Source: Candidatus Altiarchaeota archaeon | GTDB lineage: Archaea > Altiarchaeota > Altiarchaeia > IMC4 > SCGC-AAA252-I15 | Assembly (NCBI GenBank): GCA_043804895.1 | Contig: JAZDIN010000002.1 | Span: forward strand, 1 to 39,928 | Reading direction: 5' to 3' | Length of the DNA stretch: 39,928 nucleotides | Shown here: positions 9,465 through 18,304 of the stretch, one piece after another | How the letters are laid out: the number at the start of each line of letters is the position of its first letter | How positions within the stretch are numbered: the stretch's first letter is position 1 | Made by a program: the position numbers and the translations under genes | The notes under the pieces: model-generated | What the model was told of the DNA's origin: nothing | Databases searched by the model: none | The model's input: the letters and a program-made list of their open reading frames with translations, nothing else

Positions 9465-10274
9465 ATGCCTTCTGTTGAGTATGAGCTCGGGGATTTGGCG
9501 CACCTGCTTGGCCGTAGGGTGGGTGTTAAGGAGCTTCAGGAGACTATTCCGATGTTGGGTGTGGATTTAGAGTCTGTTGACGAGGATAAGCTGGTTATGG
9601 ATGTGTTCCCGAACCGGCCTGACATGCTCAACATAGAAGGGTTCGCGAGGGCGTTGAAGGGTTTTATGGGGGTTGAGGTAGGATTCAAGGAGTACGAAGT
9701 CGGCGAATCAAATGTGACACTAATCGTTGACCCCTCAGTCGATGGTGTCCGCCCTGCGGTCACGGCCGGCGTCGTCCTAGGCGTTGACATGGACGACTAC
9801 ACTGTGAAGTCCATAATGGACATGCAGGAGAAGCTCCACCTCACTCACGGCAGAAACAGGATGAAGGTCGCAATCGGAGTACACGACCTCGACAAAGTCA
9901 AGCAGCCATTCACCTACAAGGCAGTCGGCCCTGATGAGATATCCTTCACACCACTGGATATGGACCGGAAACTGACTTTAAGGCAGATTCTAGAAGACCA
10001 CCCGAAGGGCCGCGACTACGCATGGACCCTAGAGGGTAAGAAAAAATATCCTGTCTTCGTGGACCGCGACAACCAGGTCCTGTCATTCCCGCCGATAATC
10101 AACGGAGAACTCACCAGAATCACCGAAAACACTAGAAACCTATTCCTAGACTTGACAGGCAACGACCAAACAGCTGTGGAGAAGGCCTTGAACATCATAG
10201 CATGCGCACTAGCAGACCGCGGCGGCCGAATACAGACCGTTGAAGTCAAGAAGAAAAAATCCCCCCTAAAATAA
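9465..10274 (+). CDS. pheT: Phenylalanyl-tRNA synthetase beta subunit, N-terminal half only (B1 + B3/B4 editing domain)
   Basis: PNRPDML..EG.ARAL, QEKLH.T.GRNR.KVAIGVHDLD and SFPPIING motifs; ends at 269 aa. Confidence 0.88.
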   Translation: MPSVEYELGDLAHLLGRRVGVKELQETIPMLGVDLESVDEDKLVMDVFPNRPDMLNIEGFARALKGFMGVEVGFKEYEVGESNVTLIVDPSVDGVRPAVTAGVVLGVDMDDYTVKSIMDMQEKLHLTHGRNRMKVAIGVHDLDKVKQPFTYKAVGPDEISFTPLDMDRKLTLRQILEDHPKGRDYAWTLEGKKKYPVFVDRDNQVLSFPPIINGELTRITENTRNLFLDLTGNDQTAVEKALNIIACALADRGGRIQTVEVKKKKSPLK

Positions 10275-11162: not shown

Positions 11163-11657
11163 CTACCTCCTTTTGAGCGTCGGGGTCCTAACACTTTTGG
11201 CCCCGTTCTTTTCGCTTCCCCTGAGTGTGGCGTATAACACCCCCCCAACAGCCCCGAAGATTACCCCCTCAACAGTCGTAATCACGAACGAGAGGAGGGT
11301 CCACACTACTCCCTTAAGTTGGATGTTAAGTAGAGCAGCGACTCCCCCCACATTCACTCCCCTGACTGCGAGTCCGAGGCCGAAGAGGTCGAAGACCATG
11401 TTGACTACTAGGATTGCTATGGTGTCTGTGATGCCGTATAATAGGCCGAAGACGGCCCCGACTATAGCGCCGTCGGCAAGTTCGAATATCTTCATGTTCC
11501 TGCCTGAGACGTATGCTGCTGCGAACCCGCCGACTATAATCCAGAGGCAGCAGACGTTCGGGAGCCTAACAATTGGGATGGCGGCGACGACGCCTACGAA
11601 CAATCCTATCAAGGCGCAGTAGACGGCAACCCTTTTGAAGTCCATCTCATAGCCCAT
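11163..11657 (-). CDS. Gly-rich 4-TM hypothetical membrane protein with an NxCC motif
   Basis: PNVCCLWIIVGGFAAAY, DGAIVGA..G and FGAVGG; first gene of a three-gene membrane operon. Confidence 0.75.
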   Translation of the reverse strand: MGYEMDFKRVAVYCALIGLFVGVVAAIPIVRLPNVCCLWIIVGGFAAAYVSGRNMKIFELADGAIVGAVFGLLYGITDTIAILVVNMVFDLFGLGLAVRGVNVGGVAALLNIQLKGVVWTLLSFVITTVEGVIFGAVGGVLYATLRGSEKNGAKSVRTPTLKRR

Positions 11658-11735: not shown

Positions 11736-14700
11736 ATGAGAATAAACCGCATTGACACAAAAGCATACGCGATTTCAGGCGAAGCTGAAGAGTCGGCGAT
11801 AGATTACTTCAAGGAGAAGGCTGCTAAGTTCGAAAAGGAGTCTAAGTCTGAGGCGTCAATCACGCTCGAATACCATTACTCGCCGTTGGCCGTGTTCTCG
11901 GCAGTCAAATACGACAAGGAGGGTAAAGGCATCGTGATACGTGGGATGGAGAATGAGTTCCACGTTGGCTTGGACGACGCATGCTTCTACGTTTTCAGCT
12001 CCAAAGGATACGGCGAGGCTACGAAGAGCATATTCATAAAATCAAACGAAGCGAGCATAGAGAAGATAGACTTCCTCCTTAAACTGGCATCCCTCTCCCC
12101 AAAGGCTCTTCAAACGCTTGGCTACCTCCTCGACCAGGGCACCATAAACTTCGACAAGCTTGACATGCCCTCTCAGACTGCAGCTAAGGAGCTTGCAGGA
12201 AGGAAATACGCGGACATATACAAGCCTGTCGACAGGGAGGGCGACCTCACCGTCGTTTTCAGGGAGATTATCGAATTCCAGCCTGTCACGCCGGTATACA
12301 AAGTCAAGGCCATGGTGCCGATACCAAGGTTCACGAACACGATATACAACCTCTCCTCTAGACTTGAGTTGACGGACGTTGTGGAAGACAAAGTGGAACT
12401 CGGCAGGATAACACAATCCCCTGACAAGATAAAGTACCTTCTTGGGACGCTCTTCAATTGCGGCCTCCACCTGAAGAGGGTAGTATACGTGCCGTACCTT
12501 GAGTGCACGTTCAAGTGGGGCGGTAAACAGTCTAAAGAAATAAGGCATATACCCTGCCTCAAGAAGTCGAAAACAAAAAACTACCAGAAGCCAAAAAAAC
12601 TGAAAACCCTCCTAATCGGAGTCAAAGGCTATGGACTCGACTCCATACCGTTCGAGGATGTGGAGATAAAATTCTCTAATGTCGCAGGAATGGCAGAGGT
12701 GAAGGAGAGGATAAGGGAGGGGATAATCTACCCGATAATCCATCCGGAACTGTCCAAGGAGTTCGGAAGCAAAGGCGGTGGCGGTGTTCTCCTATACGGC
12801 CCCCCAGGTTGCGGGAAAACATACATAATGCGTGCCACAGTCGGTGAGGCAGGGGTCAACTTCTACACCATAGGCGTGCAGGAGATAGTCGGAGACGACA
12901 TGGAAGCGTCGGCGAAGAGGTTGGATGAGTCGTTCAACGAGGCGAGGCAGGGTGCGCCCTCGATACTATTCTTCGACGAGATTGACGCACTCGGCGGCAG
13001 CAGGAAACCAGGCCAGTCTGGGGCTGAACATAGGCTCGTCAACCAGTTCCTCACTAACATGGAAGGCGTCGGAGCGTCAAACGAGAACGTGCTCATAGTA
13101 GGCTCCACGAACGCGCCATGGGATATGGATCCTGCCCTCAGGAGGGCAGGCCGTTTCACCTTGCAGATTTTTATCCCCCCACCGGATGCGGAGGCGAGGC
13201 TCGCATTGTTCGAGGTGCACACCAAAGACAGGCCCCTCGCCAAGGACGTAAAATTCAACCGCCTCGTCGAACTGACTGAAAATTACTCGTCAGCTGACAT
13301 AACCGCATTATGCGACGAGGCTGCGAAGATACCTTGGCGGGCGAGCGTCCACGGCGAAGACAGGCGCGAAATCTCCATGGCGGACTTCATACTAGCCCTC
13401 AACGAGACGGAATCCTCTCTCATCCCATGGCTGCGCCTAGCAGAGAAGCAGCTTAGAGAAAGTGGCGAATCAGACCTCTTCCCAGAACTGGCGGACTATG
13501 TGTTTAAGCGCGCGGGCGGCATAGAGATGGTCACACAGCCGACAATGAAATTCTCTGACGTGGCTGGACTAGATGACGTGAAGGAGGAGATAAAAAACAA
13601 GATAGTCTACCCCCTCAAAAACCCGGAAATGTCCAAGAAATACGGCCGCAAACCAGGGGGAGGCGTACTACTCTACGGGCCACCAGGCTGCGGTAAAACA
13701 TACATAGCGAAGGCGACGGCAGGGGAATGTGAAGCCTCATTCTTCAACGTGAAGGCCACAGACCTTTTATCCCCTGAGGAGGGTGTGACTGAGAAGAGGC
13801 TGCACAGCATCTTCGAGCGTGCCAGCCGCAACACTCCTGCGATAATATTCTTCGACGAGATTGATGCCATAGCAGGTCACAGGAGATCCTCAGGCGGTGC
13901 TGAACGTCGGCTAATCAATCAGTTTCTGACTGAGATGGACGGGTTCGAGAAGAAGGAGGGTGTTGTCGTGTTGGCTGCCACTAATGCTCCGTGGGATATC
14001 GATCCTGCATTACGTCGCGCTGGCCGTTTCAGCGATCAAATATTCCTACCCCCACCAGACGGGAAAAGCAGGGAGGAGGTGTTCAGGATACACGCCCAAG
14101 GTAGGCCGCTATCAGAGGACGTTAACTTCAGCGAACTCTCATCGCTTACAGACGGCTACAGTTCAGCTGACATCGCGCTCATCTGCGACGAGGCCTCTAA
14201 GATTCCGTGGAGGGAGGGGATGGAATCAGGCACTGCAAGGAACGTATCGAACGCAGACTTCAAGGTCGTCATATCAGAACACAAGCCCTCGATAACGCCA
14301 TGGCTGAAGCAGGCTGAGAAACAACTCAGGGAAAGCGGAGAATCAGAGTTATACACCGAACTCGCTGAATACGTCTTCAAACGCGCCGGAGGCCTGGAGG
14401 CTGCATCCAAACCTAAGATGAACTTCTCAGACGTCGGAGGCCTCGTTGAGGTGAAGGAGGAGATAAAAAACAAGATAGTCTACCCGCTCAAGAATCCGGA
14501 GTTAGCCAAAGAATACGGTCGCACAATCGCAGGAGGCATACTATTCTACGGTCCGCCGGGTTGCGGTAAAACATACGTCGCTCGCGCTACGGCAGGCGAG
14601 TGTGAGGCGACATTCTATAATGTGACGATAACGGACCTGTTATCCCCTGAGGAGGGTGTGACTGAGAAGAAACTCCACAGCATATTCGAGCGAGCCTCAA

Positions 14701-15272
14701 GGAACACGCCGGCAGTCGTGTTCTTCGACGAAATAGACGCTATTGCAGGGTTGCGTTCCTCAGCGAAGGGCGGTGCTGAACGTCGGCTAATCAATCAGTT
14801 TCTGACTGAGATGGACGGGTTCGAGAAGAAGGAGGGTGTTGTCGTGTTGGCTGCCACCAATGCTCCCTGGGATATCGATCCTGCATTACGTCGCGCTGGC
14901 CGTTTCAGCGATCAAATATTCCTACCCCCACCAGACGGTAAAAGCAGGGAGGAAATCTTCAGGATACACACGAAGAACATCCCACTCGGAGGCGACATCA
15001 ACATAGGCGAACTCTCCTTGCAGACAGACGGCTACAGCTCATCAGACATCAAACTCATCTGCGACGAGGCTGCGAAGATTCCATGGAAGGAGACGATGGA
15101 ATCAGGCAAGAAACGCCCGGTCACGATGGCCAACTTCACCAAAGTCCTCACACAGCGAAAATCATCAATCACAGCATGGTTCAAACAAGCTGAGAAGGAA
15201 CTGAAGGCTGCAGACGAGGAAACGATGTACCCGGAACTCACCGCGGCCATAGAGAAGATGAGGGGAGCGTAG
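11736..15272 (+). CDS. AAA+ ATPase with three tandem Cdc48/Vps4-like modules and an unknown N-terminal region of about 300 aa
   Basis: Three copies each of Walker A GPPGCGKT, Walker B FFDEIDA, sensor-1 TNAPW and SRH DPALRRAGRF. Confidence 0.95.
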   Translation: MRINRIDTKAYAISGEAEESAIDYFKEKAAKFEKESKSEASITLEYHYSPLAVFSAVKYDKEGKGIVIRGMENEFHVGLDDACFYVFSSKGYGEATKSIFIKSNEASIEKIDFLLKLASLSPKALQTLGYLLDQGTINFDKLDMPSQTAAKELAGRKYADIYKPVDREGDLTVVFREIIEFQPVTPVYKVKAMVPIPRFTNTIYNLSSRLELTDVVEDKVELGRITQSPDKIKYLLGTLFNCGLHLKRVVYVPYLECTFKWGGKQSKEIRHIPCLKKSKTKNYQKPKKLKTLLIGVKGYGLDSIPFEDVEIKFSNVAGMAEVKERIREGIIYPIIHPELSKEFGSKGGGGVLLYGPPGCGKTYIMRATVGEAGVNFYTIGVQEIVGDDMEASAKRLDESFNEARQGAPSILFFDEIDALGGSRKPGQSGAEHRLVNQFLTNMEGVGASNENVLIVGSTNAPWDMDPALRRAGRFTLQIFIPPPDAEARLALFEVHTKDRPLAKDVKFNRLVELTENYSSADITALCDEAAKIPWRASVHGEDRREISMADFILALNETESSLIPWLRLAEKQLRESGESDLFPELADYVFKRAGGIEMVTQPTMKFSDVAGLDDVKEEIKNKIVYPLKNPEMSKKYGRKPGGGVLLYGPPGCGKTYIAKATAGECEASFFNVKATDLLSPEEGVTEKRLHSIFERASRNTPAIIFFDEIDAIAGHRRSSGGAERRLINQFLTEMDGFEKKEGVVVLAATNAPWDIDPALRRAGRFSDQIFLPPPDGKSREEVFRIHAQGRPLSEDVNFSELSSLTDGYSSADIALICDEASKIPWREGMESGTARNVSNADFKVVISEHKPSITPWLKQAEKQLRESGESELYTELAEYVFKRAGGLEAASKPKMNFSDVGGLVEVKEEIKNKIVYPLKNPELAKEYGRTIAGGILFYGPPGCGKTYVARATAGECEATFYNVTITDLLSPEEGVTEKKLHSIFERASRNTPAVVFFDEIDAIAGLRSSAKGGAERRLINQFLTEMDGFEKKEGVVVLAATNAPWDIDPALRRAGRFSDQIFLPPPDGKSREEIFRIHTKNIPLGGDINIGELSLQTDGYSSSDIKLICDEAAKIPWKETMESGKKRPVTMANFTKVLTQRKSSITAWFKQAEKELKAADEETMYPELTAAIEKMRGA
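13893..14953 (+). repeat. Intragenic direct repeat, 13893-14077 and 14769-14953 (185 nt, 3 mismatches)
   Basis: Direct comparison of AAA modules 2 and 3; offset 876 nt. Confidence 0.9.
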
Positions 15273-15273
15273 G

Positions 15274-15555
15274 ATGGCTAAGAATCCCTGGTTGGCTGCG
15301 GCGTTGTCTCTCCTGATTGCAGGCCTCGGCCAGCTGTATGTGGGGAGGGTTTGGAGGGCTGTGGGGTTTCTGGTGTTGGATTTAGCCACCGGGTACGTCT
15401 ATGTGAATATGAACGAGCAGGTCGGATTCACCCTTAACATGGCCGTGACTGTAATATCTGTCGTGGACGCCTACAGGTTAGCGAAGAAACCAACTGAAGA
15501 AAAACCAAAGGAGAAACCAGAACAAATCCAAAAACAGGAGCTGAGGGTGTTCTAA
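15274..15555 (+). CDS. Small membrane protein (TM2-like KNP.LAA.LS...GLGQ.Y motif)
   Basis: Starts 1 nt after the AAA gene stop; hydrophobic core, ISVVDAY motif and charged tail. Confidence 0.8.
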   Translation: MAKNPWLAAALSLLIAGLGQLYVGRVWRAVGFLVLDLATGYVYVNMNEQVGFTLNMAVTVISVVDAYRLAKKPTEEKPKEKPEQIQKQELRVF

Positions 15556-16409
15556 TCCTTCTTCTCTAACTCAGCTTGTAGTTCCGCGGGTAGTGCGCTT
15601 TTGATTGATTTCGCTGCTGCATCAGCCTTCGCAAGGTATATGCCAACACTCTCTTTGTTGAGTATTCCCGCGTTTATCATCAGATTCCTGGCTTTGGATA
15701 TGCCTTCCTGTAGGAGGAATATCGTGACTGCCTTGTTGTACACCCTCGCATTGTATGCTAGGTTGAATGCCTTCCTGTGCGCGCCCTGTATCTTAGCTAC
15801 CGTCTCGGCCTCGTCTACGTGTAGTATGTCTCCTGGGTATATCATCCCGTTCTCGTGGGCGGCCTTGACTTTCAGTACTATTTCGACCGGTTCTATGCCA
15901 AGTCTTGACAGTACGACTGCGACTTTGTCGCTGACTTTCTCGCCTTTTTTAACTACCAGCGAATCCTCGCTGACGACAATCTTCCCCCCCTGTATCTTAG
16001 CCTTCACTCCAGCGGCTTGGAAGTCTCCTATGACCGGGCCTGCTGCGATTCCAGTGTCTCCGGAGGGTATTGTGATGTCGTACGGTGCTATGCTTCCCGG
16101 CTTCGCTGGTGCTGTGGTCTTACACCCGTATATGAGCTTCTCAAGCTGGAATGGGTTCAGGTCACTGAACACGATGCCTGAGGGGGCGTTGAGGTATTCG
16201 TCCATCCCTTTCACGCCTGCCTTTTTGAGTGCTAGTTTTATGAGGTTGCTTCTTGCGACATAAATCTCTGCGCTGCCTTTCAGCTTCTTCTTCATGCTCT
16301 GCAGCTGCTTTGAAGGCATGTTTTCTATGCCAACTACTCCGATTACCTTGTGGGCTTTCACTCCCTTACTTAGCCTGCCTACCGTGTCGGTCTTCCACGT
16401 GGCTACCAT
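15552..16409 (-). CDS. rpl10: 50S ribosomal protein L10/P0 (uL10)
   Basis: WK..TV, PSKQLQ, APAKPG.IAP.DI.IP.G.TG...GP and KIQGGKI motifs; follows rpl1. Confidence 0.95.
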   Translation of the reverse strand: MVATWKTDTVGRLSKGVKAHKVIGVVGIENMPSKQLQSMKKKLKGSAEIYVARSNLIKLALKKAGVKGMDEYLNAPSGIVFSDLNPFQLEKLIYGCKTTAPAKPGSIAPYDITIPSGDTGIAAGPVIGDFQAAGVKAKIQGGKIVVSEDSLVVKKGEKVSDKVAVVLSRLGIEPVEIVLKVKAAHENGMIYPGDILHVDEAETVAKIQGAHRKAFNLAYNARVYNKAVTIFLLQEGISKARNLMINAGILNKESVGIYLAKADAAAKSIKSALPAELQAELEKKD

Positions 16410-17032
16410 ATCCTCACAGCCTCCCCCATCGTGGTTTTGACGTAAAGCGAGATTATGTTATCCCTTGGTATGGCACGCTCCACTGTCGTGTAAACTGCCA
16501 TAATGTTTTCTGAAAGGTCCTCGGGCGTCATGTCCTCCACCCCGACTGGGACCTGTATGGTTGGCAGCTTCTTGCTCTTCACCCTCACAGTGTTCTTTAT
16601 CCTCTTAATCAGCTCGTCAAGGTTCGCGGTCGGCGGGAAAGGCTGAGGCATTTTCCCCCTTGGGCCAAGTACGATACCCCACGTCTTACCGATTGCGCCC
16701 ATCAAATCAGCTTGCGCTATGAAACTGTAGCATTGTCCAGCGTATACGCGCATCTTCCTCTTGTTCTTAGCGTAATCTTCGAACTCGTTCTTGCTCAGTA
16801 CGTGCTTGCTGTGCTTCTTCGCGCGCACGTTCATGTCGCCGTCAGCGAAGAATCCTATTTCAACATCCTTCCCGCGGCCTTTCGGCAGTAGGATGTTCAG
16901 GTTAAGCTTGTGCTCCCCTTCAATCTCAACGCCCTCGAAATTGAATATGACATCTACGGTCTGCTTAAACTTGCGTTCTGTCTTCTTGGACAGCGCCTCC
17001 TCAATCTTTGGTATGAACTCTTTGGCTTCCAT
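16403..17032 (-). CDS. rpl1: 50S ribosomal protein L1 (uL1)
   Basis: RKFKQTVD, LGPRGKMP and YVKTTMG motifs. Confidence 0.97.
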   Translation of the reverse strand: MEAKEFIPKIEEALSKKTERKFKQTVDVIFNFEGVEIEGEHKLNLNILLPKGRGKDVEIGFFADGDMNVRAKKHSKHVLSKNEFEDYAKNKRKMRVYAGQCYSFIAQADLMGAIGKTWGIVLGPRGKMPQPFPPTANLDELIKRIKNTVRVKSKKLPTIQVPVGVEDMTPEDLSENIMAVYTTVERAIPRDNIISLYVKTTMGEAVRIW

Positions 17033-17103
17033 CTAATCCCTCCTAGACGTGTAGACGTCTAGTGCAACGGGTTTTAATGAATACGCAATACTCCTTAAAA
17101 AGC

Positions 17104-17799
17104 CTATTTCTTCTTCTCCTCTGGCTTTTTCTTATCCTCTTTCTTCTCTTCTGACTTGCCGTCCTTACCCTTCTTCTCCTCTGGCTTCTTCTCGTCAGTC
17201 TTGCCTTCCTTCTTCTCCTCTTCTGGTTTGGCTTCCTCTTTAACTTCTGGCTTCTTCTCATCCACACCGACTATCTTCACCTTCTCTTCCTTGTGTACTA
17301 ATTTCGGCAGGGTCTTCGTCTTCCCTGTTATGTAATCGTCTAGAATTCCAGAGCGTACGGCCTCGGTCATTTCCTTCGGAGTTAGGCCTTGTATAGTTAT
17401 CCTAAGGCTTTGGCAGCTTCCTACGACCTCTTTGACTGCTGCCTTAAGGTCTTTGGCTAGTAAGCTCCCTTGCTTGCTTTTTGCGACTTCCATCACCTGG
17501 TCTAGGCTTAGGTCGCCTACCATCTCCTTGCCGCCTCCAGCCTTATCGAGTCCGAGGGCTTTGATGAGGAGCGCTGACGTCGGCGGGCTGCCGACCTTGA
17601 TTTCAAATTTTTTGGTCGCTGGGTCGACTATGACTTCAACAGGGACCTTCATCCCCCTGAACGATGCTGTGACTTTGTTAATCTCCTCGACAACCTTCCC
17701 TGCGTTGACACCCATCGGTCCGAGCGCCGGACCAAGAGGCGGGCCTGCTGTTGCGGCCCCACCATCGACCATAATCTTGACTGTCTCCTTCTTACTCAT
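17104..17799 (-). CDS. rpl11: 50S ribosomal protein L11 (uL11) with a long Lys/Glu-rich tail
   Basis: GG.ATAGPPLGPALGP.G, F.GMKVPV and PPTSAL motifs. Confidence 0.96.
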   Translation of the reverse strand: MSKKETVKIMVDGGAATAGPPLGPALGPMGVNAGKVVEEINKVTASFRGMKVPVEVIVDPATKKFEIKVGSPPTSALLIKALGLDKAGGGKEMVGDLSLDQVMEVAKSKQGSLLAKDLKAAVKEVVGSCQSLRITIQGLTPKEMTEAVRSGILDDYITGKTKTLPKLVHKEEKVKIVGVDEKKPEVKEEAKPEEEKKEGKTDEKKPEEKKGKDGKSEEKKEDKKKPEEKKK

Positions 17800-18304
17800 C
17801 TTTCTCCCTCGTGACTACCTTGATGTCGTCTCCGTTGACTATGACTGGTATGGGAACCGCAGCCTCGATAAGTTCCACGGTTATCTCGTTCTTGTCCTTG
17901 TCTATCTTCGCCACCCTCGCCTTCTCACCCTTGAACGGGCCTGCAATCAGCTCTATGAGGTCGCCTCTGTTAACTTCGGTTACTATTGGCGTCGGCTTCA
18001 GGGTCTTCTCCAAGTCCTCTATTGGTATTATGCCTGCGCTTTCAAGGTTGCCTTTCTCCTTTAAGAGTAGTCCCTTGGTTTTAGGCACCTCCCTTGCAAG
18101 GTCTTCGACGACGCCTGGGCTGTTAGCCTCGACCAGGACGTAACCCTTCAATCCACTAGTGTAAAGAACGCTATAAACCTTCCCCCCCTCTGCCATCGTA
18201 ATGCCCCTCTTGCTTGTTGCTTCCCTGTACAAAAGCTCGGCCACGACCCTCTCCTGGCCTGCAGTTGCCTTCACAGCGTAAATCTTAGGTGTGTCTTCGT
18301 TCAT
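17792..18304 (-). CDS. spt5: Transcription elongation factor Spt5 (NusG homologue)
   Basis: NGN domain (GQE..VA, LKGYVLVEA) plus KOW (GDLIELIAGPFKGEKA). Confidence 0.96.
   Translation of the reverse strand: MNEDTPKIYAVKATAGQERVVAELLYREATSKRGITMAEGGKVYSVLYTSGLKGYVLVEANSPGVVEDLAREVPKTKGLLLKEKGNLESAGIIPIEDLEKTLKPTPIVTEVNRGDLIELIAGPFKGEKARVAKIDKDKNEITVELIEAAVPIPVIVNGDDIKVVTREKDE

Follow-up and report, generated by a model that had tools for sequence, protein, structure and literature searches.

The window analysed here, a stretch of 39,928 nucleotides (nt) from Candidatus Altiarchaeota archaeon (assembly GCA_043804895.1, contig JAZDIN010000002.1, positions 1 to 39,928 of the forward strand), carries on its forward strand a gene (11736..15272) for an N-domain followed by three classical AAA ATPase modules in one chain. 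The open reading frame (ORF) starts with ATG and runs for 1178 codons plus the stop, with no stop interrupting its 3534 nt, and the protein is aligned with its homologues from residue 1 at its N-terminus. In the 1178-amino-acid (aa) product Pfam recognises three stretches of PF00004 (E 1.6e-120) and three AAA_lid_3 domains. Behind the N-domain (residues 1-302, 11736..12641) come module 1 (M1, residues 303-595, 12642..13520), module 2 (M2, residues 596-886, 13521..14393) and module 3 (M3, residues 887-1178, 14394..15269), all on the + strand, and the chain stops with M3 at residue 1178, its last residues being R-G-A. An earlier interpretation made from the letters alone (the sequence-only reading) had proposed three complete classical modules, each closed by a helical segment and joined by short FKRAGG linkers, and this description holds in full: besides the Pfam domains and the motifs located below, the closing AEKxL segment lies at residues 569, 860 and 1152, and the linkers are present at residues 590-595 and 881-886. 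We are nearly certain that this is a real single gene and a real family. Its uncharacterised product is related to the type-II AAA ATPases Cdc48, VAT and p97 and is specific to its lineage.

Motif scans place Walker A (GPPGCGKT) at residues 355, 648 and 939, Walker B (FFDEID) at 412, 705 and 996, sensor-1 (TNAPW) at 458, 749 and 1041, and the arginine-finger motif (PALRRAGRF) at 466, 757 and 1049. The latter two align in all three modules to their p97 D1 and D2 counterparts. In an alignment of 184 family modules the Walker A, Walker B, sensor-1 and RR..R motifs are kept in every module group, and because of this conservation all three modules look, as judged from sequence, competent for ATP binding and hydrolysis.

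The likeness of the second and third modules raises the question of whether one of them was created by the assembly, from a gene that really has only two. The longest exact run shared by M2 and M3 is 89 nt, at 13893 and 14769, and it opens the most alike 300-nt stretch of the two modules (88% identity; 13893..14192 for the M2 copy and 14769..15068 for the M3 copy, both on the + strand). An M2/M3 patch at residues 716-775 is 91-98% identical in DNA and uses the same codon at 54 of 58 identical residues, which we read as local gene conversion. Related genome assemblies break exactly at the shared stretch. None of the six orthologue loci inspected for completeness, from the same and a neighbouring genus, is complete: contigs L002, L004, L005 and L007 end in module 2 within the patch common to module 3, L003 is interrupted in module 2 by a 100-N gap, and L006 is a short contig cut earlier. 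In contigs L011 and L013 the exact run is 122-123 nt, which is long enough for breaking k-mer graphs. Several of the orthologues at the six loci are named 'partial' by NCBI; since public assemblies break at the M2/M3 stretch, the gene is deposited in that form and its three-module nature is hidden.

However, the rest of the sequence speaks against an artefact. Residue identity is 53% between M1 and M2, 45% between M1 and M3 and 73% between M2 and M3, DNA identity is 56-75%, and between modules different codons are used at 30-51% of the identical residues, so the modules are old and diverged and therefore not the product of a collapsed or duplicated assembly. Beyond the patch, M2 and M3 differ throughout, with a DNA identity of 60-79% per 30-codon block and the same codon at anywhere from 5 of 15 to 19 of 23 identical residues. 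Only a chain of at least three modules can accommodate the diverged flanks together with the unique junction at which M2 ends and M3 starts. Additionally, three independent metagenome contigs (L011, L012 and L013) encode the same N-domain plus three-module protein over residues 1-1178, the same layout is found in ten database proteins from JGI, ENA and NCBI (P0002-P0011), and the frame of the window gene is open from end to end. The sequence-only reading had itself named an assembly duplication of module 2 or 3 as the outcome to watch for; the divergence of the modules and the independent contigs make this extremely improbable.

Looking at the relationships among the modules can help to explain how the third one arose. 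A maximum-likelihood tree was built from 109 of the 184 aligned modules, the other 75 rows being left out; it holds all modules of the three- and one-module proteins, three Cdc48 outgroups, and 25 of about 63 two-module proteins, chosen as the 12 closest plus every fourth. This module phylogeny, which had been suggested with the sequence-only reading, puts the first modules all in one clade (Shimodaira-Hasegawa-like approximate likelihood ratio test, SH-aLRT, 100) and the third modules with second modules. Within the clade of the window protein, M2, M3 and the second module of P0012 form one group (SH-aLRT 96). A second clade, that of the triples P0015, P0017, P0018, P0019 and P0022, repeats the pattern: its M2 and M3 form one group (95), and next to this lie the second modules of P0031, P0032 and P0040, which are two-module proteins. 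A tree constrained to unite all 16 third modules has a log-likelihood lower by 56.7 units and is rejected (approximately unbiased (AU) test, p 0.024). Besides this, the window gene and the two-module gene of contig L015 both have pheT-N and DUF4870 genes as neighbours, so that the latter is the positional counterpart of the former. It is very likely that M3 is a copy of M2, and taken together the tree, the AU test and the L015 synteny indicate, at the level of sequence, that the ancestor had two modules and that tandem duplication of the second, in place, happened twice independently in the family. Two details count against so simple a history. The AU test was applied to a group picked with the tree already in view, and in P0008 (1236 aa) the modules disagree: the first two fall in the clade of the window protein but the third joins the third modules of the other triples (SH-aLRT 96), a pattern that may reflect a module swap or recombination.

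The family to which the protein belongs is specific to Altiarchaeota and is defined by a ~300-aa N-domain followed by a D1-type and then D2-type modules, with members of one, two or three modules; the window protein belongs to it by its N-domain and by this order of module types, M1 being of the D1 type and M2 and M3 of the D2 type. Modules were counted with a hidden Markov model (HMM) made from the three modules of the window protein, and the N-region was tested by BLAST of residues 1-302. The N-region is common to 86 of the 120 homologues listed, of which 16 carry three modules, 64 two and six one, some of the shorter members being truncated by contig ends. It occurs in 47 of 61 Altiarchaeota genomes and in all 13 of the high-quality ones, and in a search of these 61 genomes of the phylum the N-region query did not find it in three families of the class. 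The organism names given by the sources for the N-region proteins are Altiarchaeota, Altiarchaeales or 'uncultured archaeon' throughout. Four two-module members (P0034, P0038, P0053 and P0057, 1064-1140 aa) have a long C-terminal extension with PF05763 (DUF835) in precomputed Pfam lists.

The window genome is 88.7% complete and has the N-domain family gene in single copy. It also encodes an ordinary Cdc48 of 730 aa on contig C25, with CDC48_N, CDC48_2 and two AAA domains, and the triple protein is therefore an extra machine and not the Cdc48 of the cell. A PF00004 search of this genome returned the triple protein, the Cdc48 and a 519-aa protein with TPR and AAA domains; the same query gave no strong single-module match of PAN type in the 88.7% of the genome that is covered.

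The N-domain matched no Pfam family over residues 1-310, and its structure is predicted with confidence as an alpha/beta fold (predicted local distance difference test, pLDDT, 86.9; predicted template modelling score, pTM, 0.83; 50-sequence alignment). The sequence-only reading had suspected a winged helix in this region of about 300 aa, and the suspicion is borne out by VIA-align, in which residues ~112-195 (12069..12320, + strand) match many winged-helix proteins, among them MarR, TFE-alpha, ScpA partners and Z-alpha, at Z 6-7 over 52-72 residues with a root-mean-square deviation (rmsd) of 1.8-4.6, a middling score. The structural match is confined to this winged helix-turn-helix, which is inserted between alpha/beta flanks at residues 1-110 and 196-310. 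A Foldseek search of the N-domain against the PDB gave weak rows only and no match at E <= 0.001, and an ESM Atlas search with the N-region gave no usable match. The isoelectric point (pI) is 9.1 for the N-domain, 6.4 for the winged-helix segment and 4.9-6.0 for the modules. Because the invariant residues of the N-domain are aromatic, Pro and Gly, its sequence points to a scaffold for binding more than to an enzyme.

Among solved proteins the closest are p97/VCP, Cdc48 and VAT (E about 1e-120), with NVL, Afg2 and Rix7 next. Each module has its best sequence and structure matches in Cdc48/p97/VAT (PDB 5vc7, 5g4f, 7lmz and others), with which the window protein shares the tandem AAA and AAA_lid_3 domains and the RR..R motif, and its module junction aligns with the p97 D1-D2 linker. 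It differs from them in having three modules rather than two and no aromatic pore loop, and Pfam finds neither CDC48_N nor CDC48_2 in it. Despite three matching stretches, it scores 678.6 bits with the CDC48 model TIGR01243, below the cut-off of 802.65. A C-terminal hydrophobic-Tyr-X sequence is a docking motif for the 20S proteasome; this ending is absent from the window protein and from the complete tails of the relatives inspected; the Cdc48 of the same genome, by contrast, has A-Y-M as its last residues. The protein does pass the cut-offs of the FtsH model TIGR01241 (642.9 against 600) and of the PAN models NF003069 and TIGR01242 (607 and 596 against 500), but only because the scores of three modules add up. 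PF01434 (peptidase M41) is not among the best 25 of 40 Pfam families and would have no room after residue 1178, and unlike PAN, which has one module behind a coiled coil and an OB domain, the window protein has an alpha/beta N-domain with a winged helix and no Pfam match. Vps4 overlays a single window module with its terminal helix (263-274 residues, rmsd 2.4-2.7), and the P-W after sensor-1 and the post-lid helix are also similar to those of Vps4. However, Vps4 has one module, the Vps4/CdvC model NF041006 scores 557.3 against a cut-off of 650, and no MIT domain is matched by Pfam in the window protein.

The sequence-only reading had implied that three modules in a classical AAA chain are rare, and this was overstated. 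An exhaustive phmmer search returned 95,780 relatives at E <= 0.001, and 24 of the best 150 representatives of these have three to six modules by the module HMM (three in 15, four in three, five in five and six in one). Pfam confirms several chains with three AAA modules, namely CDC48_N plus three modules in Ca. Altiarchaeum hamiconexum, three modules plus Peptidase_M41 in Thermoleophilaceae, and TPR plus three modules. The three-module architecture is thus recurrent and not unique. The hamiconexum proteins (P0121 and P0258, 'CDC48 family AAA ATPase' at NCBI) come from the same phylum and have three PF00004 domains and three lids per chain, but with a canonical CDC48_N and 1019 aa they belong to a different family; the protein occurs on 60 contigs and was not found in the window genome, where Cdc48 has two modules. 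The FtsH-like triples with peptidase M41 (such as P0127 of Thermoleophilaceae and P0093-P0111) have three modules per chain with all Walker motifs, but they are bacterial, end in the M41 protease and have another N-terminus. Chains of five or six classical modules were also seen: P0084 (1861 aa, also with peptidase M41 in the precomputed Pfam list), P0178 (2055 aa), P0143 (2124 aa), P0135, P0207 and P0252. Such chains could be single-chain or near-single-chain rings.

An already characterised family of this kind, which the sequence-only reading had considered possible, did not come to light: searches of the open literature, subscription-only papers and supplements not included, turned up no characterised classical AAA protein with three ATPase modules. 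The ATPase domains of EccC and EssC are unequal in activity. In these searches the type VII secretion proteins EccC and EssC were the sole studied chains said to have three ATPase domains, and they are membrane-anchored members of the FtsK/SpoIIIE family and not classical AAA proteins. The 'three-tiered' Yta7/ATAD2 consists of a bromodomain tier and two AAA tiers, and where 'AAA' occurs in PMC4975002 it belongs to the name of a genome.

The explanation that we favour, and that we regard as probable when taken as a whole, is that six chains would form a hexamer with a crown of N-domains above three stacked ATPase rings. The N-domains may choose the protein client, which could be bound to nucleic acid, and ATP hydrolysis in the three rings would remodel the client or pull it through a central channel lined by acidic, non-aromatic pore loops, with the extra ring adding pulling sites. 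For the stacked three-ring arrangement itself we have moderate confidence by analogy; it is favoured because of homology and because the D1-type and D2-type identities of the modules persist. The proteins p97/VCP, Cdc48, VAT, NVL, Afg2 and Rix7 are two-tier hexamers. In Foldseek the full-length monomer model (pLDDT 80.7, pTM 0.47) aligns with p97 protomers over 570-660 columns (target-normalised TM 0.47-0.65, rmsd 7-10), and VIA-align places residues 603-1166 of the model (M2 and M3) on residues 200-764 of p97 (D1 and D2) over 510-530 residues with an rmsd of 6-8 and Z 28-29.

A second arrangement would have the three modules of one chain lie side by side, with two chains closing one six-module ring. 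Applied to the whole family, a ring would be made of six one-module, three two-module or two three-module chains, and the module numbers of the family (1, 2 and 3) do all divide six. The short FKRAGG linkers between modules would suit such a ring, and the monomer model, with its low pTM and loose p97 overlay, does not fix how the modules are arranged. However, the closest solved homologues are all two-tier stacks, and the D1-like and D2-like identities are kept apart across the family, as expected with one module type per ring. Other lineages have four- and five-module chains, numbers that are not divisors of six. Dynein and midasin, with six modules in one chain and one ring, have modules that are strongly diverged and partly inactive, whereas the three modules of the window protein are all intact. 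On balance we think it improbable that two chains of the window protein close a single ring, and we give just as little credence to the family-wide version of the idea. Were it true, a classical-clade AAA ring made of covalently joined modules, every one of them active, would be seen here for the first time; it would be nature's equivalent of the linked hexamers engineered for studies of subunit coordination, and the gene architecture would set the copy number of N-domains per ring.

There are also observations that weigh against the stacked, threading hexamer. The two-module overlay on p97 reaches a Z equal to that of a single module (rmsd about 2), and the pTM of the model is low. In nearly all two- and three-module relatives, among them P0002, which is 76% identical to the window protein, the C-terminus is extended by a helical tail of 55-90 aa in which a G-E-I-D-E ... 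D-Y-E-K motif is conserved; in the window protein this tail has a length of 0 and tblastn for a remnant was negative. The window copy may behave differently if the tail drives assembly. At the position of pore loop 1 the modules read G-D-D-M-E (M1, 386-390) and S-P-E-E-G (M2, 679-683, and M3, 970-974), against K-F-Y-G or K-W-V-G in the co-aligned Cdc48 controls and M-W-F-G in p97 D2, so that the aromatic-hydrophobic-Gly motif of the classical AAA clade has no match in M1, M2 or M3. Such non-aromatic and often acidic loops are found across the whole family (184 aligned modules). By sequence, the missing aromatic-hydrophobic pair in all the modules argues against canonical threading.

An alternative is that the rings hydrolyse ATP without threading: while the N-domains hold a client, which may be DNA-associated, the protein would remodel it without translocation or act on it as a clamp driven by nucleotide. 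The replacement of the pore-loop aromatic by acidic or small residues in all modules, family-wide, would agree with this, as would the winged helix and the basic character of the N-domain as a whole. However, the winged-helix segment itself is not basic and its structural match is middling. Additionally, p97 D1 is an accepted member of the clade that likewise has no aromatic pore-loop residue and yet touches substrate in solved complexes, and three rings of intact active sites would be costly for a simple clamp. We regard the clamp or remodeller as a minority prospect that deserves to be kept in mind, and for the threading unfoldase, considered separately, our judgement is evenly balanced. If the stacked rings do thread their client, they must, given their acidic non-aromatic loops, grip it otherwise than with the textbook aromatic paddle.

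The relatives' tail is assigned to no Pfam family, and a likeness to the SHOCT domain was considered and dropped because Pfam gave no such match at E <= 1 for the two tails searched. Around the gene lie two ORFs for membrane proteins: one of 93 aa downstream (15274..15555, + strand), which starts 1 nt past the stop codon and matches DUF5683 below the cut-off, and a divergent one of 164 aa upstream (11163..11657, - strand). The 93-aa ORF adjoins the gene also in contigs L011 and L014 and the 164-aa ORF in L011, L012 and L013; either is at most a candidate partner of the ATPase. Further upstream, a 269-aa ORF (9465-10274, + strand) is the N-terminal half of pheT, in which Pfam finds no phenylalanyl-tRNA synthetase beta domains besides B1 and B3_4. 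A split pheT is reported to be a trait of Altiarchaeales (PMC4975002), and the half gene of the window fits this. Directly downstream, on the - strand (15552-18304), Pfam identifies the ribosomal proteins L10/P0, L1 and L11 plus Spt5/NusG, an ordinary archaeal context.

Work on classical AAA proteins rests on machines of one and two rings. Three apparently active rings, or two chains per ring, would show what an added tier gains, be it force, processivity or division of labour, and the acidic non-aromatic loops in every tier call into question the need for an aromatic paddle in gripping substrate. The three-module proteins are truncated and misnamed in databases, with assemblies tending to break in the gene and summed scores passing the FtsH and PAN cut-offs, by which automatic annotation could give them a wrong name. 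The extra module has evolved repeatedly, twice in the Altiarchaeota family and also in the Altiarchaeum Cdc48 and in FtsH-like proteases, and this repeated gain speaks for a benefit open to selection and against an accident.

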